DNA from: Gemmatimonadota bacterium | GTDB taxonomy: Bacteria > Gemmatimonadota > Gemmatimonadetes > Gemmatimonadales > GWC2-71-9 | Length of the DNA: 64,000 nucleotides | Assembly: GCA_039591655.1 (NCBI GenBank) | Contig: JBDHDE010000005.1 | Span: forward strand, 1-64,000 | Direction of reading: 5' to 3' | Shown: positions 4,066 to 20,598 of the stretch, in pieces | How the letters are laid out: each line of letters begins with the position of its first letter | Numbering within the stretch: position 1 is the stretch's first letter | Notes under the pieces: model-generated | Database searches by the model: none | What the model was told of the DNA's origin: nothing | What the model saw: the letters and a program-made list of their open reading frames with translations, nothing else | Position numbers and translations under genes: made by a program

Positions 4066-4104
4066 GACCCAGACTGAGACCCACCGAAGATTGGCCGATC
4101 CGTG
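4066..4104. repeat. Short fragment (5' conserved block only) of the repeat family: CCCAGACTGAGACCCACCGAAGATTGGCCGATCCGT
   Basis: Near-identical to the 5' blocks at 2308, 5314, 12806 and 16384. Confidence 0.7.
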
Positions 4105-4474: not shown

Positions 4475-5117
4475 CGCGTGCGGCCGGTGACGGCCCATCA
4501 CCGACAGGGCCATGGCTCCGGACGAGAAGGGCAAACTTGATCAGACCGACGGCGGCGATCACCCCAGCCGTGATCCCAGCCACGACGGGGTAGCCGTGGT
4601 GGGAGACGTAGCCGCGGCGGAATAGCCACTCGCCGATCAACGATCCAGCGGCGAGCAAGATTCCGTAGAGGAAGAGACGCGGGATTTCCAGGAAGTACGC
4701 CGCTAGCGAGAAACCCACGAGAACGATCAGTGAGAACACGATCGGGATGAACGGTTCTCCCATTCCCCGTTCCACGGCGATGAACGCGATGATGCCCAGC
4801 AGCGCCGCGACCACGTTGAAGATCAGCATCACCACGGTGAATCCTCGCAGCCGCCTCTTGCGATACGGGCCAAACCGCACCAGCCCGACGCGAGGAACGA
4901 CGACGCGCTCTCTGATGAGTCGGATCGCCAGATAGACGCCTCCGTAGACGGGAAGGAAGATGGCCGAACTCCAGAAATCGCCCATCGTCCCGCTCAACAG
5001 CGGTGCGATAGCCAACATCGCCACCACACTTGCGAGGAACACGTCCCATAGCCCGTGATCGACTGCGGTTCTGAAGGCGCGACGTTCCGCCGCCTTCAAG
5101 TCGTCGCTTATCATCAT
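4467..5117 (-). CDS. Hypothetical polytopic membrane protein (about 6 TM)
   Basis: Hydrophobic helices throughout. Start reassigned to ATGATG at 5117 because a strong SD (AAGGAGGG) lies immediately upstream; the ORF-track start at 5132 (MSKEG) lacks an SD. Confidence 0.5.
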   Translation of the reverse strand: MMISDDLKAAERRAFRTAVDHGLWDVFLASVVAMLAIAPLLSGTMGDFWSSAIFLPVYGGVYLAIRLIRERVVVPRVGLVRFGPYRKRRLRGFTVVMLIFNVVAALLGIIAFIAVERGMGEPFIPIVFSLIVLVGFSLAAYFLEIPRLFLYGILLAAGSLIGEWLFRRGYVSHHGYPVVAGITAGVIAAVGLIKFALLVRSHGPVGDGPSPAARDG

Positions 5118-5125
5118 GCCCTCCT

Positions 5126-5204
5126 TTGACAAGCCTGCACACTCTCCATAAGAGTCCTTTGCTTGTCAAAGAACACTCTAAGGGAGAGTCCGCAGTTTGT
5201 CAAG
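5126..5204 (-). promoter_or_regulatory. Operator/promoter region with three TTGACAAG / CTTGTCAA half-sites and two ~33-bp direct repeats upstream of the membrane-protein/wHTH operon
   Basis: TTGACAAG at 5126-5133, CTTGTCAA at 5162-5169, TTGTCAAG at 5197-5204. Direct repeats TTTGACAAGCCTGCACACTCTCCATAAGAGTCC and TTTGCTTGTCAAAGAACACTCTAAGGGAGAGTCC. Likely binding sites for the co-encoded wHTH regulator (autoregulation). Confidence 0.4.
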
Positions 5205-5298
5205 ACATCGACCATTCGACTCGCATAACTATATGGTCTACAACGGCTTGCGGCGCGCGGCTTGTGGGGCCGGTCCTGTGACAAGAGTTGTTGTACCA

Positions 5299-5864
5299 GG
5301 GGACAGAAGCAGGCCCAGACTGAGACCCACCGAACATTAGCCGATCCGTAAGTGGCTTGCGTGACGGGGCTTATGAGGGGTGTGTCGGGTTATCTTACCA
5401 GCTCCTAAGGCTGGCGCGTCTACCAGTTCCGCCACGGCCGCGGGATGGTCAAAACTCAGGTCTAAGCCGTTGGGAGCATAGGGATTCCGCCCGGAGGACG
5501 GGGCTCCTCGGGGTTCTGGGGCGGGTCCAGGTCGACCTTCAGATGTGGTGTTTTCCCGCACGGTCGGCGGTTTGGTGGGGCATTCTCCTGTATCTCCGCG
5601 GGTCCAGATGCGGGTCCACCTCTACCGAATGTCCCACAACGACACTCGATGCCCCCGAACAGTCCTGGCCGCGCGGCTCTCTGAATTGCAGATTGGCAGG
5701 ACAAAGATCCTCAGGGCCACTCCCCGTCCGCCCAGCGTTTGGGCGGATTAGGCTGCGTGCACGGTATGCGTCCGCTTTCCAGCCTAATCCCAGGGTAGGG
5801 TCGTGTTGTGCTGCGAACCACGCGGCGTTGGGGTGTGGACGATGCAGTCTACTACTAGTTAGGC
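5299..5864 (+). repeat. Full-length copy 1 of the ~570-bp repeat family (5' block GGACAGAAGCAGGCCCAGACTGAGACCCACCGAA ... 3' module GGGCGGATTAGGCTG...CAGCCTAATC...GATGCAGTCTACTACTAGTTAGGC)
   Basis: Aligns block-wise with 16367-16933 (~75-80% identity, conserved blocks separated by variable stretches). The 3' module contains the hairpin GATTAGGCTG/CAGCCTAATC and ends in the attC-like core GTTAGGC (5858-5864). Confidence 0.8.
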
Positions 5865-5925
5865 AGCGGGCGACCGGCCGGCGAGGATCAAGAGTACGTC
5901 ACCCTATCCTTGGAGGACTCCGAAC

Positions 5926-6285
5926 ATGGCTAGACACGTGTCGTGGATCCTCGAACTCAACATTCAGCCGGGTCGCGAGAAGGACTTTCGCGGCCTGATG
6001 GAGGAAATGGTCAGCGCGACGAGAGCGAATGAGCCTGGAACTCTCGCCTACGAGTGGAGCACCAATGCGGACGGCACGGTCTGTCACATCTCTGAGCGAT
6101 ACGTCGACTCGGCCGCCGTGCTGCCCCATCTGGGGACGTTTGGCGAGAAGTTTGCGAGCCGCTTCCTAGACATCCTCAAGCCCGTGCGCTTCGTGGTGTA
6201 CGGCTCGCCAAGCGCGGCGGTCCAGGATGCCCTAGCTGGCTTCAACCCTGTGTATATGGAGCCTGTGGGCGGTTTCAGCCGATAG
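5926..6285 (+). CDS. ABM (antibiotic biosynthesis monooxygenase)-fold protein; putative gene cassette
   Basis: 119-aa ferredoxin-like ABM pattern (ILELNIQPGREKDFRGLMEEMVSATRANEPGTLAYEWS...). SD GGAGGA 8 nt upstream of ATG. Followed by an attC-like site. Confidence 0.5.
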   Translation: MARHVSWILELNIQPGREKDFRGLMEEMVSATRANEPGTLAYEWSTNADGTVCHISERYVDSAAVLPHLGTFGEKFASRFLDILKPVRFVVYGSPSAAVQDALAGFNPVYMEPVGGFSR

Positions 6286-6323
6286 GCGCGCAGCTCGCCG
6301 TTCGCGTGTTTGCGAGCCCGCTG

Positions 6324-6464
6324 CCTAGCACGCGCATGCAGCTGCGGAGGCGCGTGGGATCTAAAGGAAGTTGTGATTGTGCGCCAGGTGAGATCCAGAA
6401 CAGATGGCTTTCCCTGCAGCTGCCGGCCCATCGCGCCCGCAGCTCATGCGCGAAGTCGTTAGGC
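6324..6464 (+). other. attC-like recombination site (141 bp): GCCTAGCacGCGCATGCAGCTGCGG ... CCCGCAGCTCATGCGCgaagtcGTTAGGC
   Basis: The ends are inverted repeats of each other with asymmetric bulges. The 5' core GCCTAGC is near RYYYAAC and the 3' core GTTAGGC is exact GTTRRRY. Lies immediately after the ABM ORF and immediately before the next ORF (ATG 6480). Confidence 0.55.
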
Positions 6465-6479
6465 TGCGACGGGCGTAAG

Positions 6480-7163
6480 ATGGCGCACCACGGCACGCTT
6501 TCCCATGACGAGGCCCGGGCCTTCTACGACCACTTCGGTTCGAAGCAGGATTGGCAGCGCTTCTACGAGGGGCCGGCGCTAGTCGAGCTCATTCGGCACG
6601 GGTCCTTCGCAGAGGCGAGTGCCGTCGTGGAGTTCGGCTGCGGCACAGGGCGGCTGGCCGAGCTGTTGTTACAGAATCATCTGCCGGATAGCGCGACGTA
6701 TCTCGCGCTCGATATCAGCTCTACTATGGTCTCCCTCAGCCGGAACCGGCTCGCCCGCTTCGGCAACCGGGTCCGGGTTGCGCAAACCGGTGGGAGTCCG
6801 CTATTGGGCGAGCCATCCGCATCGTGCGACCGATTCATATCCAGCTATGTGGTGGATCTGCTGGCGGTTGATGATATCACGACGCTGATCGCAGAGGCGC
6901 ATCGACTGCTCCGTTGGAGTGGGCGGATTGGGTTCGTAGGGCTCACGCACGGTGCGACAGCTGCGGCGCGGCTCGTTGAGCACCTGTGGGTAGCCGTACA
7001 CCGCATACGCCCATCCTGGGTGGGCGGCTGTCGACCCGTGTCTCTAACTGATTTCGTAGGCTCGGAGTGGCAGGTGACTCATCATGGCGTGGTGACCAGC
7101 TTTGCGATATCGTCGGAGGTCATCGTGGCACAGAAGGTACCTCGAGTCACAGCGCGCGAGTAG
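6480..7163 (+). CDS. Class I SAM-dependent methyltransferase
   Basis: Motif I VVEFGCGTGRLAELL and overall Rossmann MTase layout. Start at ATG 6480 just after the attC core; the ORF-track start at 6306 would overlap the attC site. Confidence 0.65.
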   Translation: MAHHGTLSHDEARAFYDHFGSKQDWQRFYEGPALVELIRHGSFAEASAVVEFGCGTGRLAELLLQNHLPDSATYLALDISSTMVSLSRNRLARFGNRVRVAQTGGSPLLGEPSASCDRFISSYVVDLLAVDDITTLIAEAHRLLRWSGRIGFVGLTHGATAAARLVEHLWVAVHRIRPSWVGGCRPVSLTDFVGSEWQVTHHGVVTSFAISSEVIVAQKVPRVTARE

Positions 7164-7184
7164 CCTCCCCCTACCCCTGAGCCG

Positions 7185-9464
7185 ATGCCCCGCGCACATT
7201 GGGTGGGCATGGCAGACTTTGTGGAACTCCTGCGGGCCGCGCTACGCGGTCGCTACTCGATCGGACGCAAGCTTGGCGAGGGCGGCATGGCTGTCGTCTT
7301 TCTCGCGAAGGACGAGCGGCATGACCGGAGCGTCGCACTCAAGGTGCTCCGGCCGGATCTGGCCTCCGAGGTCGGCGCGGAGCGATTCTTGAGGGAGATC
7401 AAGATCGCGGCCAAGCTGACCCACCCGCACATCCTCCCCCTGTATGACTCCGGCGAGGCCGACGGCTTCCTGTTCTACGTGATGCCCCTCATGGAGGGAC
7501 GGTCGTTACGGGAGCGCGTTGACAAGGAACGGCAGCTTCCACTGGATGAAGCAGTTCGCATCACGCAGGAGGTCGCGTCGGCGCTCGACTACGCGCATCG
7601 CCATGGTGTCATTCACCGGGACATCAAGCCAGCGAACATCTTGCTCCACGAAGGGGCGGCCATGGTGGCCGACTTCGGGATTGGCAAGCTGGTGAGCGCA
7701 GCCGAGGGCAAGATCACACAGACCGGGATGGCAATCGGCACGCCAGCGTACATGAGTCCGGAACAGGCATCTGCGGATTTCGAAGTGGATGGCCGCAGCG
7801 ATCTCTACAGCCTCGGATGCGTCCTGTACGAGATGCTGTCCGGTGAGCCGCCATACACTGGACCCACCGCGCAGGCGGTGATCGCCAAGCGGCTCGGCGC
7901 GCCGGTTCCGCACGTCAAAGTGGTTCGTGACGTCGCCGATCCGGTGGACGCGGTCGTCACGAGGGCGCTCGCGCGCACGCCGGTCGACCGATTTGCCTCA
8001 GCAGCCGAGTTTGCCGCGGCGCTGCGGGATGCACAGAGCGGAACGTTGCATACTCCGGAGGCTGTGCTGGCCGTCGGACAGGCCGGTAGCGATATCAAAT
8101 CCGTTGCGGTGCTGCCGTTCGCCAACTTGAGCGCGGATCCCGAGAACGAGTACTTCAGCGACGGCATGACTGAGGAGATCATCAACGTTCTCGGCAAGGT
8201 ACCGGGCATCCAGGTTGCGTCACGCACGTCGAGTTTCGCCTTCAAGGGTAAGGACGTCGACGTGCGACAGATCGGAGAGAAACTGGGTGTTGGGATCGTG
8301 CTCGAGGGAAGCGTACGCAAGGTGGGCCAGCGGATCCGCATTACCACGCAGCTCACCGATGTCACCAACGGCTACAACCTCTGGAACGAGACGTACGACC
8401 GGCAACTGGAGGACGTGTTCGCCATTCAGGACGAGATCTCCCGAGCGATCGCGGACGCCCTCAAGGTCAAGCTCGTCGGCGATATGGGGAGACGGATGGC
8501 CCCCGCGCCGGAGAACCTCGAAGCGTACAACCTCTACCTAAAAGGACGCTTCTTCTACAACAAGTTCACCGAGGTCGATCTCCGGCGAGGCGTCGAGCTG
8601 TTTGAGCACGCCTTGAAGGAGGCCCCGAAGTATGCTCGTGCCCACGCCGGTATCGCGGACTGTTGGGCCTATCTCGCGGACGATTGGGTGGCCCCAGACG
8701 AGGCGTACCCCAAGGCGAAAGCATCCGCGATGCGCGCGCTCGACCTCGAACCGTCCCTCGGAGACGCGTTCACCGCGCTGGGCAAGGTGCTGTGCTGGTA
8801 CGAGTGGGATTTCGCGGGTGCCGAACGGGAGCTGACGAGTGCGGTGAACCTGAACCCGAACTCGGCCGAAGCGCGCTTTGTCTTGGGCAGCGCGTTGCCG
8901 TGCGTCGGCAAGCTCGACAGGGGACTCGAGGAGCTGCGGCAGGCGCTCGTACTCGATCCGCTCGCCCCGCTGTTCAGTCGGTGGGTGGGCCGCTACCTGC
9001 TCTTCTCGGGCGACTACGACGGCACGATCGAGCAGAGCGAGAAGACGCTGGAGCTGGACCCCAACTACTTCCACTCGTTCCTTGATATCGGCTCCGCCTA
9101 CCTCGGCAAGGGCGCTCCCGAACACGCCCTCGAGTGGTACCGGAAGGGCCAGTCACTGCCGTCCAGCGTCCGCTCGTATGATGCACACCTGGTTCGTGCA
9201 CTTGCGGCCACGGGCCAGCAGGAAGAAGCACAAGCGATCCTCGAGCGGCTCGAAAAGGAGGCTCAGGAGCACTACCTCAGATCTGAAGTGCTCGCGATGG
9301 GCTATGCCGCCGTGGGGGACTTCGATGGGGCGTTCGCCGGCCTCGAGCAGGCAGTTCGGTCGCGCTCGGGAGGGCTCATCTTCATCCACCTGGATCCTGG
9401 CTACGAACCGCTGCGGACGGATGCGCGGTTCGCCAGGATCGTCGAGCAGGTGGGGGTCAGGTAG
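7185..9464 (+). CDS. Ser/Thr protein kinase with C-terminal TM, TolB-N-like region and TPR repeats (complete paralogue of the kinase at 1-2211)
   Basis: Gly-rich loop LGEGGMAVVF, VALK Lys, HRDIKPANILL catalytic loop, DFG, APE (GTPAYMSPEQ). Then LPFANLSADPENEYFSDGMTEEI motif and TPR-like repeats. Confidence 0.85.
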   Translation: MPRAHWVGMADFVELLRAALRGRYSIGRKLGEGGMAVVFLAKDERHDRSVALKVLRPDLASEVGAERFLREIKIAAKLTHPHILPLYDSGEADGFLFYVMPLMEGRSLRERVDKERQLPLDEAVRITQEVASALDYAHRHGVIHRDIKPANILLHEGAAMVADFGIGKLVSAAEGKITQTGMAIGTPAYMSPEQASADFEVDGRSDLYSLGCVLYEMLSGEPPYTGPTAQAVIAKRLGAPVPHVKVVRDVADPVDAVVTRALARTPVDRFASAAEFAAALRDAQSGTLHTPEAVLAVGQAGSDIKSVAVLPFANLSADPENEYFSDGMTEEIINVLGKVPGIQVASRTSSFAFKGKDVDVRQIGEKLGVGIVLEGSVRKVGQRIRITTQLTDVTNGYNLWNETYDRQLEDVFAIQDEISRAIADALKVKLVGDMGRRMAPAPENLEAYNLYLKGRFFYNKFTEVDLRRGVELFEHALKEAPKYARAHAGIADCWAYLADDWVAPDEAYPKAKASAMRALDLEPSLGDAFTALGKVLCWYEWDFAGAERELTSAVNLNPNSAEARFVLGSALPCVGKLDRGLEELRQALVLDPLAPLFSRWVGRYLLFSGDYDGTIEQSEKTLELDPNYFHSFLDIGSAYLGKGAPEHALEWYRKGQSLPSSVRSYDAHLVRALAATGQQEEAQAILERLEKEAQEHYLRSEVLAMGYAAVGDFDGAFAGLEQAVRSRSGGLIFIHLDPGYEPLRTDARFARIVEQVGVR

Positions 9465-9554
9465 CGGTCACCGCACCCGTGTTGCCCCAACCAGCACTGC
9501 CTCGCCAAGCCAGTACCCCCCGAGCTGCTCGAGTCTGAGCGACGCTGCTAACGT

Positions 9555-9716
9555 ATGTCGAGACTCTTGGCGGTGATCGGCGCGACCGTTGGGTGCACCC
9601 TAGGGTGGTGGCTGGGTGCGCAGGTTGGCTTCATGACCGCATTCCTGGTAGGCGTCGTCGGAACGGCGCTCGGCGTCTACATAGGCCGCCGTATTGCGCG
9701 AGATTACCTAGAGTGA
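9555..9716 (+). CDS. Small (53 aa) glycine-zipper membrane protein, not in ORF track
   Basis: Hand translation: MSRLLAVIGATVGCTLGWWLGAQVGFMTAFLVGVVGTALGVYIGRRIARDYLE. Paralogous to the 43-aa protein at 20420-20551 (shared GW..G...G zipper and C-terminal R-E/D-Y-L-E/D). Confidence 0.4.
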   Translation: MSRLLAVIGATVGCTLGWWLGAQVGFMTAFLVGVVGTALGVYIGRRIARDYLE

Positions 9717-9744
9717 ACGGGCCGATGGCTCCGGTTGCCGTGCC

Positions 9745-9804
9745 GCCTAACCCACGCCCGCAGCTGATGCGCGAAGTTGTCAGGCAGAACACAGACCGTT
9801 AGGC
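9745..9804 (+). other. attC-like site (60 bp): GCCTAACccacgCCCGCAGCTGATGCGCGAAGTtgtcaggcagaacacagaccGTTAGGC
   Basis: Exact RYYYAAC (GCCTAAC) and GTTRRRY (GTTAGGC) cores, mutually complementary, at the classic 59-be length. Shares the CCCGCAGCTSATGCGCGAAGT motif with the site at 6324-6464. Confidence 0.6.
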
Positions 9805-9933
9805 GGCGGCGGTCGTCCACCTTGGTATCGCGTGTGAACCTATTTCGATTGCAGGAAGAGGCTTTTCAGGTTCATCAGGAACGTTGGTTCTAGCGCATCA
9901 GATTCGTTGATTTCGATTGTTAAGGAGCAGATT

Positions 9934-10305
9934 ATGGACCTCGGTGCATTCTCGATCAGCTTGGCAGTGAAGGACATCGGAGCATCGAAGGAGTTTTACG
10001 AGAAGCTCGGTTTCGAAGTCTTCGGCGGCGATGCCTCGCAGAACTGGCTGATCATGAAGAATGGCGATCACGCGATCGGGCTCTTTCAGGGAATGTTCGA
10101 GAAGAACACCCTGACATTCAATCCTGGCTGGGACAGTAACGCCCATGAGCTCGATACCTACACAGATGTCCGCGAGCTACAGCGTCATCTGAAGGAGCAG
10201 GGAGTAGAGCTGATCAGCGAGGCGGACGAGAGCACCTCCGGACCCGCGAGTTTTATCGCAGTGGATCCTGATGGAAACCCGATCCTCGTCGATCAGCATG
10301 TCTGA
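9934..10305 (+). CDS. VOC (glyoxalase/bleomycin-resistance/dioxygenase) family protein; putative cassette
   Basis: [29 protein letters not shown] is a VOC beta-alpha-beta-beta-beta module. Start at ATG 9934 with SD AAGGAG 6 nt upstream; ORF-track start at 9907 rejected. Confidence 0.6.
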
Positions 10306-10327
10306 GCCATTGCACGCGCCCCTGGGC

Positions 10328-10449
10328 GGATTAGGCTGCACGCACGTTATGGGCGACAGCTCGCAGCCTGTTGCCGAGGTATGTTTGGTGTTAGACGGAG
10401 TATTCGGCAGGGCGGCAGTACAGATGACTCAGTCTAATACTAGTTAGGC
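10328..10449 (+). repeat. Stand-alone copy of the repeat family's 3' module (GATTAGGCTGC...GCAGCCT hairpin ... GATGACTCAGTCTAATACTAGTTAGGC), attC-like
   Basis: Matches 5746-5864 and 16813-16933. Ends in GTTAGGC (10443-10449); an additional GTTAGAC at 10391-10397. Confidence 0.6.
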
Positions 10450-10507
10450 GGATGCCCGTGCCACTCCGGAGCAGCGCCGACTTCGCTCCCATGCAACCGG
10501 GGCACCT

Positions 10508-10852
10508 GTGATTAACGGCATCCACGCGCTCATCTATGCCCAGCAGGCCGAAGAGGTCCGTGCTTTTTTTCGCGACACGCTCGGCTTGCCATCAGTCGAT
10601 GCCGGCAAGGGCTGGCTGATCTTCGCCCTGCCGCCGGCCGAACTAGCGGTCCATCCTGCCGACGAGGGGGCCTACGAGCTGTATCTCATGTGCGACGACC
10701 TCCACGCCACTATGGCGGATCTAGAGCGGCGAGGAGTCACGTTCTCTCAACCGGTCACCGAGCAGTCATGGGGGCTGGTCACCTCCATCCGCCTGCCGGG
10801 TGGCACGGAAATGCGGCTTTACGAACCACGCCATCCCTCACCGCTGACGTAG
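10508..10852 (+). CDS. VOC (glyoxalase-like) family protein, GTG start; putative cassette
   Basis: 114 aa; HALIYAQQAEEVRAFFRDTLGLPSVDAGKGWLIFALPPAELAVHP is the VOC fold. Second VOC in consecutive units. Confidence 0.5.
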   Translation: MINGIHALIYAQQAEEVRAFFRDTLGLPSVDAGKGWLIFALPPAELAVHPADEGAYELYLMCDDLHATMADLERRGVTFSQPVTEQSWGLVTSIRLPGGTEMRLYEPRHPSPLT

Positions 10853-10933
10853 CAGGCGGGCCCCGGAGTCATCTGACTCTGGATCACTGGACCCGCTCCG
10901 CACTCTCCATGTTGCCTACCCAAAGGCCCGCCC

Positions 10934-10989
10934 TTGACACCCCACTCACCATATTGTACTATATGACCATAACACTAGTATTATAGTAC
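10934..10989 (+). promoter_or_regulatory. Sigma70-like promoter (TTGACA-17-TACTAT) overlapped by palindromic operator GTACTATA-N18-TATAGTAC upstream of the GntR gene
   Basis: -35 TTGACA at 10934-10939, 17-bp spacer, -10 TACTAT at 10957-10962. Inverted repeat GTACTATA (10956-10963) / TATAGTAC (10982-10989), the GT..AC-type palindrome typical of GntR operators. Confidence 0.5.
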
Positions 10990-11006
10990 GCAAGGGATAC
11001 GGAACC

Positions 11007-11381
11007 TTGGAATTCTCCATCGACCCGAAGAGCGGCGTCCCCTTTTACCGGCAGATCATCGAGCGGGTCAAGTTCGGCATCGCCCGGGGTCTTCTCACGC
11101 CGGGGGACCAACTCCCCACGGTCCGGCAGCTCGCCACGGACTGTTCGGTCAATCCCAACACCGTCATCCGCGCCTACCGACAAATGGAGATCGAGGGCGT
11201 GCTGGACACGCAGCAGGGTTCCGGGACTTTCGTCAGCGACCGCCGGCCGGAGATCGACGATCTCGAGCGCCGCCGGATGCTCGACCAGATCCTCACCGAA
11301 ATGCTGGCCCGCGCCTCTGGGTATGGGTTCACGGTCGACGAGGTGTTCGAGGGGCTGCACCAGCGAAGGGAGGAGTCATGA
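11007..11381 (+). CDS. GntR-family transcriptional regulator (small, YhcF/YtrA-like), TTG start
   Basis: N-terminal wHTH: GDQLPTVRQLATDCSVNPNTVIRAYRQMEIEGVLDTQQGSGTFV (GntR signature). Stop overlaps the next gene's start (ATGA). Confidence 0.7.
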   Translation: MEFSIDPKSGVPFYRQIIERVKFGIARGLLTPGDQLPTVRQLATDCSVNPNTVIRAYRQMEIEGVLDTQQGSGTFVSDRRPEIDDLERRRMLDQILTEMLARASGYGFTVDEVFEGLHQRREES

Positions 11382-12487
11382 TCCACCGAACCTCCAAACA
11401 CCACCGTCCCGGGAAGTCGCAATTTGGGATCTCCCTTGAGAGATTCGCCACTTCGAGCCGGGCCGACTTTCGATTCGCACCCCTCAACGCCCTGTTGCTG
11501 GTGGCAATGTTCGTGATCGGGCTGACGGTGCACCTGAACGTACACGAGTTCACGATAAAGGCTGTCTACCTCTCCCTTGGATCGGCGCTGGGCCTCACTA
11601 TCCTCATTCGTTGGACCCAGGTGTGGGAAGCCGTCGTCATCCTCGGCACCGCCGTCTGCCTGACGATCTTCCTCGAGCTGCGTCCGAACAGCGAGATCCT
11701 GCTGGCGACCGCCATCGTGGCGCTGCTCGTGTCTCCCGCTGTCCAGATCGCCTACCAGTGGGAGCGGGCCGTGCTGCTCCGCTTCGGCAAGTTTTGTGGA
11801 TTGCGCAAGTCGGGTCTGTTTCCCGTCGTGCCGGTGATCGACAAGGTGGCCCAGTTCGTGGACCAGCGAATCCGGGTAACCGACTTCAGCGCCGAGACGA
11901 CCCTCACCGCCGATACGGTCCCGGTCAACGTGGACGCCATCGCGTTCTGGATGGTGTGGGACGCGGAGAAGGCGGTCCTGGAGGTGGAGCAGTTCGACGA
12001 CGCGGTGATCATGTCGGCACAGACGGCCCTGCGGAACGCCATCGGGAAGAATGACCTGGCAGTGCTGCTTTCCGAGCGTGACCGGTTGGGCAGCGAGATT
12101 CAGAAGCTGCTCGACTCGAAGACCAACGCCTGGGGCATCACCACCGAGGCAGTGGAGATCCGCGACATCATCATTCCCGAGGCTCTCGAAGATGCCATGT
12201 CGCGCCAGGCCCAGGCGGAGCGGGAGCGCCAGAGCCGCATCATCCTCGGCACTGCCGAGACCGAGATTGCGGAGAAGTTCGCCAAAGCGTCGGAGCATTA
12301 CCAGGACAACAGCGTCGCCCTGCATCTGCGGGCGATGAACATGGTCTACGAGGGATTGCGGCAGAAAGGCTCGATGGTCATCGTGCCCTCCACCGCAGTG
12401 GAGAGCATGGGCCTGGGAGCCCTCGGCGGGTTGACCGCCCTTGGCCGTGACGTGACTCCGCAAGACGCAGACCACGCCGAACCATGA
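11378..12487 (+). CDS. SPFH/band-7 (stomatin/prohibitin/HflKC-like) domain membrane protein
   Basis: N-terminal TM helices, then an SPFH core (PVIDKVAQFVDQRIRVTDF...TADTVPVNVDAIAFWMV...EIRDIIIPEALEDAMSRQAQAERERQSRI). SD GGGAGGAG; translationally coupled to the GntR gene. Confidence 0.7.
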   Translation: MIHRTSKHHRPGKSQFGISLERFATSSRADFRFAPLNALLLVAMFVIGLTVHLNVHEFTIKAVYLSLGSALGLTILIRWTQVWEAVVILGTAVCLTIFLELRPNSEILLATAIVALLVSPAVQIAYQWERAVLLRFGKFCGLRKSGLFPVVPVIDKVAQFVDQRIRVTDFSAETTLTADTVPVNVDAIAFWMVWDAEKAVLEVEQFDDAVIMSAQTALRNAIGKNDLAVLLSERDRLGSEIQKLLDSKTNAWGITTEAVEIRDIIIPEALEDAMSRQAQAERERQSRIILGTAETEIAEKFAKASEHYQDNSVALHLRAMNMVYEGLRQKGSMVIVPSTAVESMGLGALGGLTALGRDVTPQDADHAEP

Positions 12488-12542
12488 GCACGCAGACAGT
12501 TAGGTGCCCGGTTAGGCACGGCAACACGAAAGGGGGATCAAC

Positions 12543-12746
12543 ATGAAGCCGGCTGCAACGGTAGCCATCGTATTCCTTCTCCTGGTCGCGCTCGTGCATT
12601 TGCTCCGCCTGCTCTTCGGCGTTGCGATCACCGTGAGTGATACGACCATTCCAATGTGGGCGAGTGTCCTGGCCGTCATGGGCCCTGGAGCTCTGGCAGT
12701 GTGGTTGTGGCGCGAACAGTCCGCACCCCGCACGCCGACCGCCTAA
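12543..12746 (+). CDS. Small (67 aa) two-TM membrane protein
   Basis: MKPAATVAIVFLLLVALVHLLRLLFGVAITV... is hydrophobic. Its TAA stop lies inside the GCCTAAC core of the following attC-like site. Confidence 0.4.
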   Translation: MKPAATVAIVFLLLVALVHLLRLLFGVAITVSDTTIPMWASVLAVMGPGALAVWLWREQSAPRTPTA

Positions 12747-12795
12747 CGCGCGGCGGGCACGCGGGCGTTTCAGACGGAATGTCATGACGTTGGGC
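12741..12795 (+). other. attC-like site (55 bp): GCCTAAC ... GTTGGGC
   Basis: Exact RYYYAAC and GTTRRRY cores. The stop codon of the upstream ORF is embedded in the 5' core, as is common in integron cassettes. Confidence 0.45.
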
Positions 12796-12838
12796 AGAAA
12801 GCGGGCCCAGACTGAGACCCACCGAAGATTGGCCGATC
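12792..12838. repeat. Fragment (5' conserved block) of the repeat family, starting inside/right after the attC-like 3' core: GGGCAGAAAGCGGGCCCAGACTGAGACCCACCGAAGATTGGCCGATC
   Basis: Near-identical to the 5' blocks at 5299, 16367, 4066 and 2308. Confidence 0.7.
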
Positions 12839-12994
12839 ACCCGGGCTCTCTTTCTGAAGGGAGCTGCGGTACTGAAGCTCAAGGTGGCACAGCGCCCGGC
12901 CCCATGCCGGGCGCTGTTGTTTCCGGTCCAAGAATCCCGACGAGTGCTCGCCTTCACACACCAGTCGGCGCGGGCAAACCTCGCCTCTCGCGCT

Positions 12995-13960
12995 TCAGTT
13001 CGTGATCGTCGCCGTTCCGGTCGGCAAGGGACTCAAGGCGGTGATCGTCCGCTGGTCCGTCGGCCCACCATCGCCAAATGGATTCCCAAACGGCTTGAGT
13101 TGAAACGGTACGGCCGCGAGCGTCGCCTCGCCTTCGTCGAACGTGGGTTCGATCGAGATTACGTGCATCCACTCGCTGTCGCCGGTCACCTGGTCGTCCC
13201 CATTGAAGTCGAAGGGAAGCGCAATACCCCCGGGCACTGTATTTCCGTTGTCCATCACGAAGTCTCCGCCGGGGAAGGGTGGGCCGGCGCCCAAATCACC
13301 GGGCGCACCCGACAACGGCCCGGCGGCGTCACTGTCCCGTGTGCTCACCGTGCCGCCCGCCTGAGGCTCGTACTTACCGTAGGAGATGGCAGTCTGCATG
13401 GCGGTACCCGGCCTGTGAACGACCCAACCCTCGTAGACCCAACCGTCGGTGAGCGGTGGAAGCGTGACTGATGGGTCGGGTGCGCCGGAGGGATCGAGCA
13501 GCCAGATGCCCCCGTCGTCATCGCTGCCGGTCGTGGTAGTCGGCGTCAGCAGCACGTGGGTGCCCGGGGTCGTCGCGAAGTCGGCCGAACTGCTCACAGT
13601 GACGAACCCGAGGGCCGAAAGCGTCGCCATCCCGCTGGAGAACGCTCCGCCCAGGAGCTTCTGATCGGATGGGATGTCGTCAGTGTCGCCAGGCGGTTCG
13701 ACAGTGAGCACGAACATCATGGGCTCGGCGATCGGACTGGTGAACGTGTGCTGCCCGGAGGCTTCGAGATCGAACTTGCCCGTCGAGAACGGCGATCCAC
13801 TCGCGTCGATGACCCAACCTTCGTACGTACCCTCGGTCGCCGCGTCGAGGGCTGCGAGATCTTGGAACGCGACGTCGAGCGTCGCCATCTCTGGTCCTTC
13901 GTCTCCGCAGGCGACGAGTGCCGCGATCGCGAGGACGCCGACGTATCGCTTGAGCAACAT
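12995..13960 (-). CDS. Hypothetical lipoprotein (lipobox LVAC), Gly/Asp/Thr-rich secreted protein
   Basis: Signal peptide MLLKRYVGVLAIAALVACGDEG. SD GGAGGT 6 nt upstream of ATG. Confidence 0.5.
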   Translation of the reverse strand: MLLKRYVGVLAIAALVACGDEGPEMATLDVAFQDLAALDAATEGTYEGWVIDASGSPFSTGKFDLEASGQHTFTSPIAEPMMFVLTVEPPGDTDDIPSDQKLLGGAFSSGMATLSALGFVTVSSSADFATTPGTHVLLTPTTTTGSDDDGGIWLLDPSGAPDPSVTLPPLTDGWVYEGWVVHRPGTAMQTAISYGKYEPQAGGTVSTRDSDAAGPLSGAPGDLGAGPPFPGGDFVMDNGNTVPGGIALPFDFNGDDQVTGDSEWMHVISIEPTFDEGEATLAAVPFQLKPFGNPFGDGGPTDQRTITALSPLPTGTATITN

Positions 13961-14040
13961 GGGTTACCTCCGCACGAGATGAGAGTGTACGGAGGAAGCT
14001 GGTTTGGGCGCGACAGTGTTTGAAGGGAAGACTCCGAAGG

Positions 14041-14054
14041 TTAGAGCTTTCTAA
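14041..14054. promoter_or_regulatory. Palindromic box TTAGAGCTTTCTAA (copy 1), ~85 bp upstream of the lipoprotein gene and just downstream of the HK stop
   Basis: Exact 14-mer also at 16191-16204 upstream of the response-regulator gene. Extended here to GGTTAGAGCTTTCTAACC (7-bp arms). Confidence 0.45.
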
Positions 14055-14061
14055 CCTGCCT

Positions 14062-15465
14062 TTAATCTCCGGCCGGAAGCCAAAGCACGAAACGACTGCC
14101 TTTGTTCGGCGTGCTCTCCACCGATATGCTTCCGGCTTGGAGCTGTGCGAGCATGCGGGCGATGGTGAGACCCAAGCCCGCACCTCCGTGGGCACGACTG
14201 CGCGATCCCTCCACCCGTTCGAAGCGGTCGAAGACTCGGTCGAGGTCGTTCTCCGCAATCCCTACACCGGTGTCCGTGACGGAGACTCCGACCATGCCGT
14301 CCCTCCGCTGGAGCTCGAATAGGATGCTCCCCCTTGAGGTGTAGCGGACTGCGTTGGACGCCAGGTTCAAGAGGATTTGCCGCGTGCGATCGGCGTCACC
14401 GAGCGCCTCCGCGGAGTCTGTGAGGTCGGCCTTCACATCGATGTCGCGCCCCGATGCCATCGCTTGGGTTACTTCCTCCACATCCCGCGCGACTTCGGCG
14501 AGATCGAACGGCTGCAGCGCGAGCTCGAGCTGCTGGTTCTCACCACGAGCGATGAGGAGCAGGTCCTCGATCATCTTCGTTGTCTGATCGACCTCGCGCG
14601 CAATCTCCCCAAGTGCCTCACGCATCTCTTCGAGCGACCGGTGCTCAGCTAGCGCCCACTGGGCTTGCGCACGCAGATGTGTGAGTGGCGTTCGCAGTTC
14701 GTGACTCGCGTCTGCGGTGAATGCCTCGAGGGCAGCATTGGCTCGCTCCACGCGGGCGATCAGACGATTGATCTCGTCGGCCAGCTGGGTGACCTCGGTC
14801 AGACCCGTAGGGCTGGTGACTCGCTCAGAGAGATCCCGCGGATCGATCTGTTGCGTCTCTTCGACTGTCCGCGCGAATGGGATGAGCGCCGCGAGGATCG
14901 TGCGGCGCGTTGCGCGCTGTGCGACTAACGCTGCCGCTGGCAGGAGTGCGAGGGCCACGATACCCAGGCCGAGCATCGCAACCAGGTATGGGACTCGACT
15001 GCCGGCGACGAAGATGTCGAAGTCGCCCGCACGCCGATGGCCGACCCGGTAACGCCATCGACCGCGCTCGGCGATCACGGTCACCAGCTGCCGCCGCACC
15101 TGGTTGTGTGACGCATCCGGTGCCACTCGGACCTCTTTAGCCGGCATCGTCGGCGACAGGAAGTACACGGTGCGGTCGCCTCCCTCGGTCGCTATGGCGC
15201 GAGTGATCAGAAAGGGTTCGCTCATCTCCAAGAGCTGATCCGCCAGCATAGCCGGGGCGACGGACGTGCGCTCCCCGCCGGGATCCGCGTACAGCCCCAG
15301 GAGCGACTGAACGACGTCGGCGGAGTGATCGAGCGCCCGGCGGAGCGAGAGTTCACTCACCAATGCCGAGGCGCCGATCACGATGACTGCGTACACGATG
15401 AGGGTGTGCCAGAGGACGCGGCTCAAGCTCGCAGCCAGCCGTTGACGGAGGCGAGGTTCCATCAT
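14062..15465 (-). CDS. Sensor histidine kinase (HAMP + HisKA + HATPase_c), 2 TM
   Basis: H-box FTADASHELRTPLT, N/G boxes (LNLASNAVRYT, DTGVGI, GGAGLGL). Start at ATGATG overlapping the RR stop (ATGATGA). Confidence 0.8.
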   Translation of the reverse strand: MMEPRLRQRLAASLSRVLWHTLIVYAVIVIGASALVSELSLRRALDHSADVVQSLLGLYADPGGERTSVAPAMLADQLLEMSEPFLITRAIATEGGDRTVYFLSPTMPAKEVRVAPDASHNQVRRQLVTVIAERGRWRYRVGHRRAGDFDIFVAGSRVPYLVAMLGLGIVALALLPAAALVAQRATRRTILAALIPFARTVEETQQIDPRDLSERVTSPTGLTEVTQLADEINRLIARVERANAALEAFTADASHELRTPLTHLRAQAQWALAEHRSLEEMREALGEIAREVDQTTKMIEDLLLIARGENQQLELALQPFDLAEVARDVEEVTQAMASGRDIDVKADLTDSAEALGDADRTRQILLNLASNAVRYTSRGSILFELQRRDGMVGVSVTDTGVGIAENDLDRVFDRFERVEGSRSRAHGGAGLGLTIARMLAQLQAGSISVESTPNKGSRFVLWLPAGD

Positions 15466-16136
15466 GTCGCCTCCAGCCGATAGCCCACCCCGCGCACGGT
15501 GCGGATTCTCGCTCCCGCCGTGTGGAGATCGAGTTTCTTTCTCAAGTAGTTGATGTACACGTCCACCACGTTCGTCTCCGGGTCGAAGTGGTAGTCCCAC
15601 ACGGCTTCGGCGATGCGCGATCGGGAGACCGTGCGGCCGGCGTTTCGCATCAAGAACTCGAGGAGCGCCAACTCGCGGGGGCTCAAGTCGACGGTGCGGT
15701 CGGCGCTCGAGACACGCCGCTGTAACGTATCCACTCGTAGCTGTCCGACTTCGAGTGTCGTGTCCCGATGCCGTAGCTTGGCGCGCCGAATCAGGGCAAC
15801 GATGCGAGCCATGAGTTCGGGAAGATCGAACGGCTTGGTCAGGTAATCATCCGCACCGCCTTCCAGGCCGCGGACCCGATCGTCGAGATCGTGGCGTGCA
15901 GTGAGGAGCAGAATCGGCGTCGTCACGCCTCGCTGCCGCAGCTCGGCCACGACGCTGAACCCGTCGCGCCCCGGCAGCATCACATCAAGCACGATGCAGG
16001 CGTAGTCGCCTTTCAACGCGCGGTCGAGCCCCCGGTCACCGGATTCCGCGTAATCAACGGCGTAACCCTCTTCACGCAACGCCTTGCGCAGAAACGCGCG
16101 CAGGTTTCGGTCGTCTTCCACCAACAGAATCTTCAT
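15462..16136 (-). CDS. OmpR-family response regulator (REC + winged-helix)
   Basis: MKILLVEDD...DVMLPGRDG receiver, with C-terminal trans_reg_C (LSPRELALLEFLMRNAGRTVSRSRIAEAVW...GVGYRL). Confidence 0.85.
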   Translation of the reverse strand: MKILLVEDDRNLRAFLRKALREEGYAVDYAESGDRGLDRALKGDYACIVLDVMLPGRDGFSVVAELRQRGVTTPILLLTARHDLDDRVRGLEGGADDYLTKPFDLPELMARIVALIRRAKLRHRDTTLEVGQLRVDTLQRRVSSADRTVDLSPRELALLEFLMRNAGRTVSRSRIAEAVWDYHFDPETNVVDVYINYLRKKLDLHTAGARIRTVRGVGYRLEAT

Positions 16137-16190
16137 GAGTAAGGAAGGTAGGACTCTGCTCGGGGCCAGGGCAACGGCGAGAGCCCTCGA

Positions 16191-16204
16191 TTAGAGCTTT
16201 CTAA
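16191..16204. promoter_or_regulatory. Palindromic box TTAGAGCTTTCTAA (copy 2), ~60 bp upstream of the RR-HK operon
   Basis: Exact 14-bp match to 14041-14054. Both copies sit in promoter-proximal positions of minus-strand genes. Confidence 0.45.
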
Positions 16205-16366
16205 TGACTGGAAGCGGAAGGGAGCTGTGGTGCTCTCAACCGTCCGTCGCAACCCGCACCAACAACTGGTAATCGGGAAGCCCGCTATGTTGGCCCGAGT
16301 CTGCGTCTCATAAGCGCCAGCGCTAGCTACCGGTCATGGGGTGCCGTAGCGGGAGCTATCCTGCCG

Positions 16367-16933
16367 GGGGACAGAAGCGGGCCCAGACTGAGACCCACCG
16401 AAGATTCCCCAATTCGTAAGTCGCCTTCCTGAAGGGGTTTGCGAGGGCTTGGGCGGCTCTGCAGACCAGCTCCTAAGGCTGGCGCGTCTACCAGTTTCGC
16501 CATGGCCGCGGGATGGTCAAAAGTAATGTCTAAGTCGTTGTGGCCATAGTGGTTCTGCCCAAAGGACGGGGCTTCTGGGGGTCCTGGGGCGGGTCGTCGA
16601 TCCGCAGATGTGCTGTCTTCCCGTACGGTCGGCGGTTTTGCAGGGCATTCTCCCGTATCTCCGCGGGTCCAGATGGCGGGTCCACTGCGTCGAAGGTCCC
16701 AGATCAGGCACACGGTGCCCCCGAACAGTCCTGGCCACGCGGGTTTCCGAATCGCAGATTGGCAGGACGGAGATCTCCACGATCGCTCCCTGTCCACGTA
16801 GCGCATGGGCGGATTAGGCTGCAAGCGGAATGGGCTGGGGTGCTCGCAGCCTTATCCCGGCGGAGGTTCACGTTAGGCTGCGCGCGGTGCGCCAGTGGGG
16901 GAGGGAAAGATGCAGTCTACTACGAGTTGGGCG
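16367..16933 (+). repeat. Full-length copy 2 of the ~570-bp repeat family, ending in attC-like cores (GTTAGGC at 16873-16879, GTTGGGC at 16927-16933)
   Basis: Block-wise alignment to 5299-5864: GGGACAGAAGCGGGCCCAGACTGAGACCCACCGAAGATT, CCAGCTCCTAAGGCTGGCGCGTCTACCAGTT, GCATTCTCCYGTATCTCCGCGGGTCCAGATG, CCCCCGAACAGTCCTGGCC, GCAGATTGGCAGGAC, GGGCGGATTAGGCTGC, GATGCAGTCTACTAC. Confidence 0.8.
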
Positions 16934-16944
16934 GCGGGGGTCAG

Positions 16945-17463
16945 TTGAGCGGTACCGCACATCTCAAGGAGCCGATCGCCTGCACTGAGGGGGAGCGCCG
17001 GGAGTTCGCGCGTCTTGTTCGCCAAGGTTTTGAGACCGCGGCTGAGGACTTGGATGGCCGCATTCGTGATGCGGAATGGCTTGCGTTCCATTACGCGGAA
17101 GGCAACACGCTCGCGGCGGTCGCCGCCCTAAAGGCGCCCAACGTACGGTATCGGGACAACGTCTTCAAGAAGGCGGACGCACCCGTCAGCCCTGCTGCTT
17201 ACAAGCTCGAACTTGGCTGGGTCTTCGTCATTCCTGCCCACCGAGGGAACCGGATTGCCGAGAGTCTTTGCCAGCTGCTTTTGGCGCGCGTGCCTACGTC
17301 CTGTGTTTTTGCGACGACCCGCCCGAACAACATCTCCATGATTAGCATCCTTCTCGCCCTCGGCTTTGCGCGAGTCGGCAAGCCGTATCCCCACCGCAAC
17401 GAAGAGCTTGTACTATTCTTGCGGTCGTGGCCGCTCTTCGTGGCGCCAGGCCCCGCCGCCTAA
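16945..17463 (+). CDS. GNAT-family N-acetyltransferase (non-ATG start; 5' end uncertain); putative cassette
   Basis: C-terminal GNAT core LGWVFVIPAHRGNRIAESLCQLLLARVPTSCVFATTRPNNISMISILLALGF (motif A region). There is no in-frame ATG, so the start is probably the TTG near 16945. The ORF-track start at 16540 runs through the repeat and is rejected. TAA stop is embedded in GCCTAAC. Confidence 0.45.
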   Translation: MSGTAHLKEPIACTEGERREFARLVRQGFETAAEDLDGRIRDAEWLAFHYAEGNTLAAVAALKAPNVRYRDNVFKKADAPVSPAAYKLELGWVFVIPAHRGNRIAESLCQLLLARVPTSCVFATTRPNNISMISILLALGFARVGKPYPHRNEELVLFLRSWPLFVAPGPAA

Positions 17464-17492
17464 CCCGCAGCTGATGCGCAGAGCCATTAGGC
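17458..17492 (+). other. Short attC-like palindrome GCCGCCTAACccgcagctgatgcgcagagccATTAGGCGGC (degenerate)
   Basis: GCCTAAC core overlapping the GNAT stop; arms GCCGCCTAA/TTAGGCGGC. Shares the CCGCAGCTGATGCGC motif with other sites. The 3' core is ATTAGGC (one mismatch) and the site is shorter than a typical attC. Confidence 0.35.
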
Positions 17493-17537
17493 GGCTAACC
17501 ATGAACACTCTTCCTCACTGAGTGCGGAACGTCCAAG

Positions 17538-18434
17538 ATGCCGAGTATAAGAAGCCGGATTGTCCGTCTGTTTCTCAGGTATCAGATCTGGAAGGCTGAC
17601 AAGAACGCCACTTTGCAGCAACGACGGGCGACCCTTGAAGATGCCGCACGGCGTCTGCCAATGCCACGTCGCGTAGATGTGCAGCAGACTACTGTTGGAG
17701 AGACCCCTGCCGAGTGGCTTCGGCCTGCCGACACCACTGACAACCGGGCGATTCTGTACTTGCATGGTGGTGCCTACACGATGGGGTCGTGCACAACCCA
17801 TCGGGCCCTGGCATCTCGTATTGCTGTCGCTAGCAAGGCTCCTGCACTGCAACCCGAGTATCGCCTTGCGCCTGAGCATCCATTCCCGGCTGCTCTTCAG
17901 GATTGTGTGGCTGCTTATCGCTGGCTGCTCGACTACGGAATTCCACCACAGAAGACAGTTGTCGCGGGCGACTCGGCTGGAGGTGGTCTGGCTCTAGCCC
18001 TGGCTGTCACGCTTCGCGACGACTATGTCCCACTCCCGGCCGCAATCGTTTGCATGTCGCCGTGGGCCGATCTTGAGCTGACAGGCCAATCGCTTAGGAC
18101 CCGCGCGAATGTCGATCCCGTCTGTAGCCTGGAGGAAAGCCAGTTTCATGCGGGCCAATATGTTGGGAAGAACGATCCCCGGGCGGCACTCATTTCACCC
18201 ATCTATGCGGACCTACGTGGCCTGCCGCCAGTACTCATCCATGTCGGCGACAGAGAGATTCTGTTGAGTGATGCGATGCGACTGGCAGAACGTGCTCGTG
18301 AAGATGGGGTTGATGTAGAGCTGAAGATCTGGGAGGGCATGTGGCATGTTTGGCATCTGCTCGCCGGGTACGTGCCGGAAGGTCGACAAGCGGTTGACGA
18401 AATCGGTGCTTTCATCAGCAAATACACAGACTGA
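17538..18434 (+). CDS. Alpha/beta hydrolase fold-3 esterase/lipase (HSL family); putative cassette
   Basis: HGGAY oxyanion motif and GDSAGG nucleophile elbow. C-terminal Asp/His consistent with the catalytic triad. Confidence 0.75.
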   Translation: MPSIRSRIVRLFLRYQIWKADKNATLQQRRATLEDAARRLPMPRRVDVQQTTVGETPAEWLRPADTTDNRAILYLHGGAYTMGSCTTHRALASRIAVASKAPALQPEYRLAPEHPFPAALQDCVAAYRWLLDYGIPPQKTVVAGDSAGGGLALALAVTLRDDYVPLPAAIVCMSPWADLELTGQSLRTRANVDPVCSLEESQFHAGQYVGKNDPRAALISPIYADLRGLPPVLIHVGDREILLSDAMRLAERAREDGVDVELKIWEGMWHVWHLLAGYVPEGRQAVDEIGAFISKYTD

Positions 18435-18450
18435 GGCGGCCGTGGCAGCC

Positions 18451-18478
18451 GCCCAACAGGCGCATGAAGCTGCGGGGA
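18451..18478 (+). other. Truncated attC-like half-site GCCCAACaGGCGCATGAAGCTGCGGGG (R''/L'' arm only)
   Basis: RYYYAAC core plus the family motif (reverse complement of CCCGCAGCTCATGCGC). No matching 3' arm is seen, which could mark the distal end of the array. Confidence 0.3.
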
Positions 18479-20376: not shown

Positions 20377-20419
20377 AGCCCCACAGGCGGAGACACCTGT
20401 TGTGAGCTGGAAGTGGCGC

Positions 20420-20551: not shown

Positions 20552-20598
20552 CGCCTTCTGAGGGCGACGCGGAGCATCTACCACAGGGAGGTTCCCAA

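Follow-up and report, generated by a model that had tools for sequence, protein, structure and literature searches.

Is an array of small genes, separated by palindromic repeats with integron-type core boxes but accompanied by no integrase, a true cassette array? This question is raised by the first 64,000 nucleotides of contig JBDHDE010000005.1 of a Gemmatimonadota bacterium (assembly GCA_039591655.1; to be referred to as the window). An initial annotation described positions 5299-18478 as a cluster of attC sites lacking an integrase (CALIN), with attC-type sites after single-gene units. In operational terms, at least two sites must be accepted by the attC covariance model before a CALIN is called (Cury et al. 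2016, PMC4889954; PMC9024848). Our reading, to which we give about an even chance, is that the region from 2.3 to 18.5 kb is a variable mosaic island, part of which is an integron-related cassette array with non-canonical sites that has lost its integrase and is largely decayed.

The heptamer GCCTAAC or its complement GTTAGGC is found nine times in the 64 kb, compared to 2.9 copies expected, and none of 100 shuffled sequences reached nine. All nine copies are located inside 5858-17464. A segment of 15 nucleotides, CCGCAGCTSATGCGC, is present without any change at 6437, 9758 and 17465, and its complementary arm is found at 6332 and 18460, as expected from the shared internal motif that had been described. 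Given this enrichment and confinement, together with the shared 15-mer and its complementary arm, the junction repeats are a real, non-random family. The core heptamers have a consistent polarity, and the sites are positioned at gene ends in one orientation. Two types of sites can be distinguished (type-A and type-B). The remaining 46 kb of the window and contigs L018, L019 and L022 of three relatives contain no copies of either motif, and the type-A pattern was not found in the viral contigs scanned.

Six sites had been listed, and their end boxes were all located as described, except that site 1 starts at 6323. The outer cores (consensus RYYYAAC for the R″ box and GTTRRRY for the R′ box) match fully in sites 2 and 4. 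The R″ box of site 1 is GCCTAGC and the R′ box of site 5 is ATTAGGC, while site 3 has no R″ box and site 6 has no R′ box. Site 1 (6323-6464, + strand), on the 3′ side of the ABM gene, is a full type-A site and reads GCCTAGC-AC-GCGCATG[C]AGCTGCGG...variable centre...CCGCAGCT-CATGCGC-GAAGTC-GTTAGGC. Its bottom strand folds into a long imperfect hairpin (−37.2 kcal/mol, z = −2.5), with bulges of one and two nucleotides, both on the 3′ arm of that strand. The homologue of this site in a related genome (L014, see below) has the same R and L arms, the asymmetric internal loop and the two same-arm bulges, and only the centre of the hairpin has diverged. Bulges on the same arm also occur in the true attCs that we examined. 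An L″/L′ inverted repeat with extrahelical bases on the expected arm is present in site 1 and its L014 homologue only, and the other five sites are without it.

Sites 2 and 5 are short type-A sites on the + strand, consisting of an R″ box, a right arm and an R′ box. In site 2 (9745-9804), the R″ box GCCTAAC is followed by the right arm (CCGCAGCTGATGCGC GAAGTT GTCAGGC), 12 nucleotides and GTTAGGC, and there is no left arm. Site 5 (17458-17492), with GCCTAAC, CCGCAGCTGATGCGC AGAGCC and ATTAGGC, is a mini-palindrome of 35 nucleotides (z = −2.8), and the stop codon of the GNAT gene is in its first box. The right arm begins 1-6 nucleotides past GCCTAAC at both short sites. Site 6 (18451-18476, + strand) is a half site, GCCCAAC AG GCGCATGAAGCTGCGG, with the R″ box and the left arm only, at the right edge of the island. 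In site 4 (12741-12795, + strand; GCCTAAC...GTTGGGC), only the end boxes are shared with the family, the interior being unrelated, and the site directly abuts a 43-nucleotide repeat (motif43, see below). The TAA stop codons inside GCCTAAC, at 12744-12746 and 17461-17463, are present as described. An imperfect palindrome was said to follow each ORF (open reading frame). On folding, this is true of site 1, with its full hairpin, and of the mini-palindrome of site 5, while sites 3, 4 and 6 fold no better than shuffled sequences (z = 0.13, −1.05 and 0.06, respectively).

That the palindromes are downstream of ORFs, some with G+C-rich stems, is also what ordinary intrinsic terminators at gene ends would give. 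A terminator scan finds none at these sites, however, and terminator-like hairpins lie elsewhere, for example at 12889-12917. Conserved arms of 28 nucleotides, core heptamers and confinement to one island would not be expected of terminators either. This explanation is rejected because there is no T-run at any of the sites, and we consider it hardly credible.

The earlier view that the sites are one related family with integron-type core heptamers is supported; site 3 belongs to another repeat family, type-B. Type-B sites are located on the + strand at 5740-5864 (copy A, followed by the ABM gene), 10323-10449 (the lone copy, between two VOC genes, previously placed at 10328-10449) and 16806-16932 (copy B, followed by the GNAT gene). 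The boxes of copy A are ATTAGGCTGC..GCAGCCTAAT..GCTGC..GCAGTCTAC-TACTAG-TTAGGC. Several GTTAGGC-type boxes are found in alternating orientation, and the end of the site, GCAGTCTAm-TACTAG-TTAGGC, is an imperfect inverted pair with a 6-bp spacer. By analogy, this 3′ end looks like a double-stranded simple site of the attI type. GTCTAA and TTAGGC stand 6 nucleotides apart and G|TT marks the boundary with the first cassette, an arrangement that would resemble attI1, and two to three further GTTAGGC-like boxes are present upstream within about 130 nucleotides. In three cases (ABM, GNAT and a lipoprotein in L014), type-B is followed, as attI would be, by one small ORF with a type-A site at its end. 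In comparison, an integron has one attI beside intI, whereas there are three type-B copies in this array and two in tandem in another relative (L007). No functional intI adjoins type-B, and the copy at 10323-10449 occupies an attC position inside the array.

Type-B is also the last 130 nucleotides of a longer non-coding element of about 590 nucleotides, which is found twice (5272-5875 and 16340-16938), with about 80% identity, and a third time as a partial copy (2265-2510). This element, at the start of the interval that had been described, was missed in the initial annotation, as was the tRNA-Leu-derived repeat in it. It is made up of the T-element (described below), a middle part of 220 nucleotides, and type-B. 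Its conservation is patchy, with perfectly conserved blocks alternating with strongly diverged ones. There is no called gene in the element, and a protein search with its conceptual ORF gave no matches. The repeats and the element belong to no Rfam family (at gathering thresholds and at E ≤ 5) and have no ARAGORN call. A structured RNA was also considered for the element; an alignment fold of two or three copies showed no convincing covariation, and this candidate was rejected.

The genes between the sites are mostly small. The ABM ORF (5926-6285) is located between a type-B and a type-A site, and is followed by a gene for a SAM-dependent methyltransferase (SAM-MTase; 6480-7163). The first VOC ORF (9934-10305) is in a segment with 54% G+C, and the closest homologues found on plasmids come from Bacillota and Bacteroidota (58-68% identity). 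The second VOC gene (10508-10852), the GNAT ORF (16927-17463) and the esterase ORF (Abhydrolase_3; 17538-18434), the latter positioned between a right arm and a left arm, complete the set. Pfam agrees with the six families assigned earlier, and all six genes are on the + strand. The ABM, first VOC, GNAT and esterase ORFs are cassette-like. The distance from the 3′ core to the next ORF, given as 15-60 bp, is 15, 58 and 45 nucleotides in three cases; in another it is 129 nucleotides, and site 4 has no following + strand ORF.

A search for related genomes with different genes between the same sites, which had been suggested as a check, was positive in L014 and L007. In L014, a relative with an 87% identical membrane protein, the same membrane/HTH (helix-turn-helix) operon stands beside a type-B site, a small lipoprotein ORF, a full type-A hairpin and a beta-lactamase-family gene. 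The counterpart in the window is type-B, ABM, type-A and MTase. The type-A hairpin of L014 reads GCCTAAC-CC-GCGCAT[G]CACCTGCGG...CCGCAGCTGATGCGC-AGAGTC-GTTAGAA. In this stretch, L014 and the window are homologous only in the two junction elements, up to the boxes at their ends. In L007, a metagenome-assembled genome (MAG) that is a GTDB representative, two type-B sites and a half type-A site are found around two unrelated ORFs.

The right boundary of the island is defined by two other relatives, L032 and L033, in which a GGDEF gene is located directly upstream of a gene for a 588-aa protein. The island occupies this place in the window, and the homology to both relatives begins at 18473-18475, the end of half site 6. 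Core genes (CoA-transferase, molybdopterin oxidoreductase, FabH, cytochrome oxidase, HtrA and DnaK) are found from about 18.5 kb onward. The G+C content of the island is 54-64%, compared to 67% for the core DNA. Taken together, the cargo of L014 and L007, the L032/L033 boundary, the G+C content and the homologues of VOC show that the island was assembled horizontally, with exchangeable cargo lying between conserved junction repeats.

There are several observations, however, that weigh against an integron-related array, and the first of them concerns the attC covariance model. The model used here is a substitute, constructed from 14 attCs of class 1 plasmid integrons, in which the pairing covers the R box, the spacer and the L box, and its calibration is rough. 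(A second attC alignment was not made into a model, its variable-region columns being no cleaner.) The training sites score 40-81 bits and four held-out attCs 40-60 bits, and the 150 kb searched gave no false positives. Two attCs of an unrelated integron on a Diaphorobacter plasmid score 48 and 22 bits; the integrase beside them is 47% identical to the query, a divergent IntI-like protein of Virus Rctr41k. With the filters off, the substitute model has no match at any of the claimed sites in the window, and none in L014, L007 or L003 (a relative described below). Searched alone, site 1 scores less than 5 bits and the type-A site of L014 about 2 bits. The type-A sites fail because their geometry is different. 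A true attC has R″, 5 nucleotides, 3 bp, a bulge, 6 bp and a bulge, whereas a type-A site has R″, 2 nucleotides, 7 bp, a bulge, 8 bp and a bulge, with a 6-nucleotide spacer on the other arm. Moreover, the two-arm structure cannot form at four of the six sites. As far as the substitute model can test it, the attC label fails the refuting condition set in the initial annotation, every claimed site being rejected. Four of the six are without an arm, and several breakpoints are not at G|TT. We take the failure in the model to be a real negative, though not a final one, because the model is a substitute with rough calibration.

The organization of the array provides further points of this kind. The units had been described as single genes, which does not hold. 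The unit at 6465-9744 contains the MTase, a 759-aa Ser/Thr kinase and a 53-aa ORF, and that at 10450-12740 contains VOC, GntR, SPFH and a 67-aa ORF, with a promoter-like site at 10934-10962. The block at 12796-16364 has three genes on the minus strand, for a lipoprotein, a histidine kinase and a response regulator. At its right edge, the island ends within the left arm of site 6 and not at G|TT. Contigs matching the window come from one population of Gemmatimonadota (JGI metagenomes 3300041074-87, and contig JBDHFM010000004.1 of MAG GCA_039590415.1), and the gene order is the same in every one of these contigs, with no variation seen. L003, a strain with 98% nucleotide identity where it shares sequence with the window, departs from it at 9536, about 70 nucleotides past the kinase gene, where there is no recognisable site. 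Finally, a homologue of the 53-aa ORF is located directly after the 588-aa gene in L033 (89% identity over 9556-9753 of the window), and the homology ends right after GCCTGACCC. This segment corresponds to the R″ box of site 2, and in L033 it is a native GCCTGAC with no partner arm.

Since the homology to L033 includes this box, the DNA to which the R″ box of site 2 belongs is also found elsewhere, with no partner arm beside it. The box and the following CC travel with the upstream 53-aa ORF, and the arrangement of R″ and right arm in site 2 can be read as loss of the left arm, insertion beside a core-like target, or capture of a native gene. The 53-aa ORF itself (9555-9716) encodes a glycine-zipper protein and has 89% nucleotide identity to the gene after the 588-aa gene in L033 (2525-2722), while the native position in the window (20413-20551) carries a diverged small ORF of a similar kind. 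This comparison suggests that the copy in the array was captured from the core DNA of a relative. The observation in L033 bears on the origin of cassettes, as a native small gene ends there at a core-like box that is the R″ box of a site in the window.

The same arrangement is used by a different explanation, in which the sites are lineage-specific palindromic repeats of the REPIN or MITE type (paired repetitive extragenic palindromes, or miniature inverted-repeat transposable elements) in a recombination hotspot, the match to the integron core is coincidental, and a sequence like GCCTAAC is the target, with insertion of the right arm just 3′ of it. The right arm is found 1-6 nucleotides after GCCTAAC at sites 2 and 5, and the GCCTGAC of L033 is native and armless. 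Site 1 can be described as two inverted units of about 26 nucleotides, 87 nucleotides apart, with single units at 17465-17492 and 18451-18476. As in REPINs, two inverted short units form a hairpin of about 140 nucleotides, the locations are extragenic, and decayed single units are nearby. A degenerate remnant resembling a left arm is located at 9886-9906 (+ strand; TTCTAGC GCATCAGATTCG) and is complementary to 9759-9772, forming an inverted repeat. A right arm followed about 100 nucleotides later by a degenerate left arm (9758-9906) is like an empty element, and the esterase gene is also between a right and a left arm, the latter ending at the junction to the core DNA. The failure of the canonical attC model would be expected as well. 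On the other hand, REPs are normally dispersed, whereas the remaining 46 kb and contigs L018, L019 and L022 gave no copies, so that in the DNA examined a single island holds all of the repeats. The window has no transposase gene, of the RAYT type or any other, among the genes seen, and no target-site duplications were seen. An exact integron core, in the right polarity and at both ends of the conserved unit, is unlikely to be due to chance, and the type-B sites are not accounted for. We regard the REPIN/MITE explanation as doubtful, though it is the main rival. If the locus is not derived from an integron, exact GCCTAAC/GTTAGGC cores at gene ends are insufficient for an attC call.

A further set of repeats is found at the T-element, a segment of about 215 nucleotides that consists of motif43, a variable stretch, a tRNA-Leu fragment and 70 nucleotides. 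All three copies are on the minus strand. Copy A (5299-5514) has the 70 nucleotides, the 5′ two-thirds of tRNA-Leu (5441→5396), a variable stretch of about 60 nucleotides, and motif43 (5349→5307). Copy B (16365-16580) was located by repeat comparison and has its tRNA part at 16464-16509, and copy 0 (2292-2510) has it at 2389-2434. Copies 0, A and B and the copy in L032 have a common end point, GGAGGACGGGGCTYCT. In L032, a piece of the T-element is found 110 nucleotides upstream of the GGDEF gene, with the tRNA fragment at 1-46, and short pieces are also found where the window has an insertion of 6 kb. The fragment contains the 5′ strand of the acceptor stem, the D arm and the anticodon arm, and is without the T arm and the 3′ strand of the acceptor. 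It was identified as tRNA-Leu by blastn to annotated phage tRNA-Leu genes (90% identity over 40 nucleotides). The anticodon loop is CTTTGGT in copy 0 compared to CTTAGGA. Neither the window nor any of eight related loci has a tRNA called by ARAGORN.

Motif43 (core GACTGAGACCCACCGAASATT) is the first 43 nucleotides of the 590-nucleotide element. The window has five copies (2300-2342, 4061-4103, 5307-5349, 12799-12841 and 16375-16417), and L007 has one (4150-4200). The copies at 4061-4103 and 12799-12841 are solitary and on the + strand. The first of these, together with that at 5307-5349, brackets a minus-strand module of HTH_34 and membrane-protein genes, and the second, together with that at 16375-16417, brackets the minus-strand genes for the lipoprotein, the histidine kinase and the response regulator. 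The pair at 2300 and 4061 flanks a saccharopine-dehydrogenase (SDH) module. In L007, motif43 adjoins an HTH gene, and the flank on its other side is wholly unlike the window; the motif is thus a synteny breakpoint between the two. An exact 21-mer of motif43 has one occurrence in 185,579 species-representative genomes. Scans of sequence collections gave one true relative (L007), and all matches in metagenomes and viruses were due to chance.

The duplication of motif43 looks like that of an att-type sequence at a docking site derived from a tRNA gene, with three points counting against this: there is no intact tRNA and no integrase, and the part of the tRNA that is retained is the 5′ one. Extended to the entire region, it would be a tandem array of small integrative islets at a tRNA-Leu-derived gene, with motif43 as the att core that is duplicated in each insertion, and the GCCTAAC sites would be incidental. 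The five direct repeats and the modules that they flank (HTH and membrane protein, lipoprotein with the two-component pair, and SDH) are in agreement with this, as is the location of motif43 at the 3′ end of an element with a tRNA-Leu fragment. The L007 flank beyond motif43 differs from the window, and T-element fragments mark rearrangement junctions in L032. Genomic islands at tRNA genes share two of these features, in that direct repeats of the tRNA-Leu-containing element flank modules and that the place is a rearrangement hotspot in several relatives. However, the repeat here is the 5′ two-thirds of the tRNA and upstream DNA instead of the usual 3′ part, motif43 itself is not tRNA-like, and neither an intact tRNA nor an integrase is present. 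Moreover, the HTH/membrane module of L014 has no motif43 and no T-element, and the + strand units and the type-A and type-B sites are left unexplained. An array of islets is in our view an unlikely explanation of the region.

An integrase would bear directly on the integron-related reading, and its absence is another point on the negative side. There is no Phage_integrase match among the ORFs scanned in the window, and tblastn of the window with IntI1 gave nothing significant, so that the earlier statement that the 64 kb have no integrase is confirmed by both approaches. The IntI1 query was 100% identical to annotated intI1 genes. One candidate for a relic was observed in the non-coding stretch between the T-element and type-B (5515-5735, minus strand; the equivalent in copy B is 16581-16805). 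Translated and extended by about 65 nucleotides into the T-element (5503-5745), it matches positions 213-278 of NCBIfam NF011946 (integron integrase), with an E value of 0.083 and a score of 12 bits. This is the only match among 18,950 families, and it is found for copy A only. The strand is that expected for intI, the stretch adjoins type-B, and tblastn with IntI1 gives 30 bits, compared to a noise level of about 23 bits. In comparison, copy B has no match, also adding to the negative side, and there is none in Pfam. A phmmer search against 1.8 billion proteins found no recombinase and only three long multi-stretch proteins, which were taken as spurious. With Pfam empty and phmmer returning only proteins of this kind, the segment at 5503-5745 is a faint lead to a possible integron integrase relic and is treated as such.

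The repeats, their polarity, the differences in cargo between genomes, the island boundary and the failure of the canonical model are observations, and the integron-related reading would connect them through a recombinase and a crossover point that we infer. The units would be small, mostly promoterless + strand genes (ABM, VOC, GNAT and esterase) between junction repeats, starting at GCCTAAC and ending at G|TTAGGC. Type-A would be an attC-like hairpin family with one intact copy and others that have lost an arm, and type-B a composite of 130 nucleotides ending in GTCTAA-TACTAG-TTAGGC, with its inverted pair serving like an attI simple site. Modules would have been exchanged at the GTT of the cores by an integron-integrase-type tyrosine recombinase whose gene is elsewhere or has been lost, and the first gene past each type-B site would be the product of an insertion between attI- and attC-type sites. 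Arm deletions, capture of native DNA and insertion of the minus-strand modules at the 43-nucleotide end of the tRNA-Leu-derived element may have followed, and the arrangement would now be fixed in the sampled population. In a bolder version, the system would be a working, non-canonical integron-like one, in which the long type-A hairpin, with its different R-L spacing, pairs with a repeatable, double-stranded, multi-box, attI-like type-B site, the tRNA-Leu-derived element is a second docking site, and the 53-aa ORF, with its homology to L033 ending exactly at a native GCCTGAC box, is a chromosomal gene in the process of becoming a cassette. We consider this version distinctly improbable.

The region has much in common with a CALIN, including co-oriented small accessory genes, imperfect palindromes with RYYYAAC...GTTRRRY ends and no intI nearby. 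The sites within the array resemble one another and the cargo differs between related genomes, as in CALINs and sedentary chromosomal integrons. There are also differences. No site passes the substitute model, only one site has two arms, and the R-L spacing is not that of an attC. Some of the units are multi-gene operons with promoters or are on the opposite strand.

Integrons and CALINs have already been recorded in Gemmatimonadota (PMC8618304, PMC9024848). In the IntegronFinder 2.0 listing, Gemmatimonas aurantiaca has a complete integron, and Gemmatirosa kalamazoonesis has both a CALIN with 8 attCs and a complete integron with 79 (PMC9024848). The suggestion that integrons are poorly described in this lineage was therefore overstated, as the supplement of PMC9024848 lists integrons and a CALIN. 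Searches with VOC and with site 1 as the query gave no match to the Gemmatirosa plasmid that carries the 79-attC integron. Because of these records, what is new here is the non-canonical architecture of the sites and their association with type-B and the T-element, not the presence of cassettes in the phylum. If the locus is derived from an integron, it shows decay of an array through arm loss, native-DNA capture, operon insertion and fusion with a tRNA-fragment hotspot. It would then also show that diverged sites outside Proteobacteria can escape covariance models whose training set is mobile integrons.

Other features were observed in and around the island. A tandem of boxes, GTTAGGT-GCCCG-GTTAGGC, is located at 12497-12517, between the SPFH gene and the 67-aa ORF, and may be what is left of a further junction site. 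The same architecture is shared by two genes for Ser/Thr kinases with TPR repeats, one at the left edge of the contig (19-2211) and the other inside the array (7185-9464), and several assemblies break in or near the region of these two genes. L001, from the same population, is without 48 nucleotides of the first kinase gene (1497-1545) and 44 nucleotides of the 53-aa ORF (9613-9658); these differences look like indel polymorphisms or assembly differences within the population.

Beyond the island, a block of about 6 kb (20400-26560; CoA-transferase, NrfD, Fe-S protein and molybdopterin oxidoreductase) is absent from L032. That relative has 777 nucleotides (3136-3913) with two short T-element fragments between the 588-aa gene and a Na+/H+ exchanger gene, and the saccharopine-dehydrogenase gene (2533-4011 of the window) comes after the Na+/H+ exchanger there. 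Among the control loci, the class 1 integron L041 (Raoultella plasmid NZ_CP038280.1, locus 4198-5547) has a gene for a group II intron reverse transcriptase beside an attC in the array. The presence of group II introns next to attC in cassette arrays is a known association.

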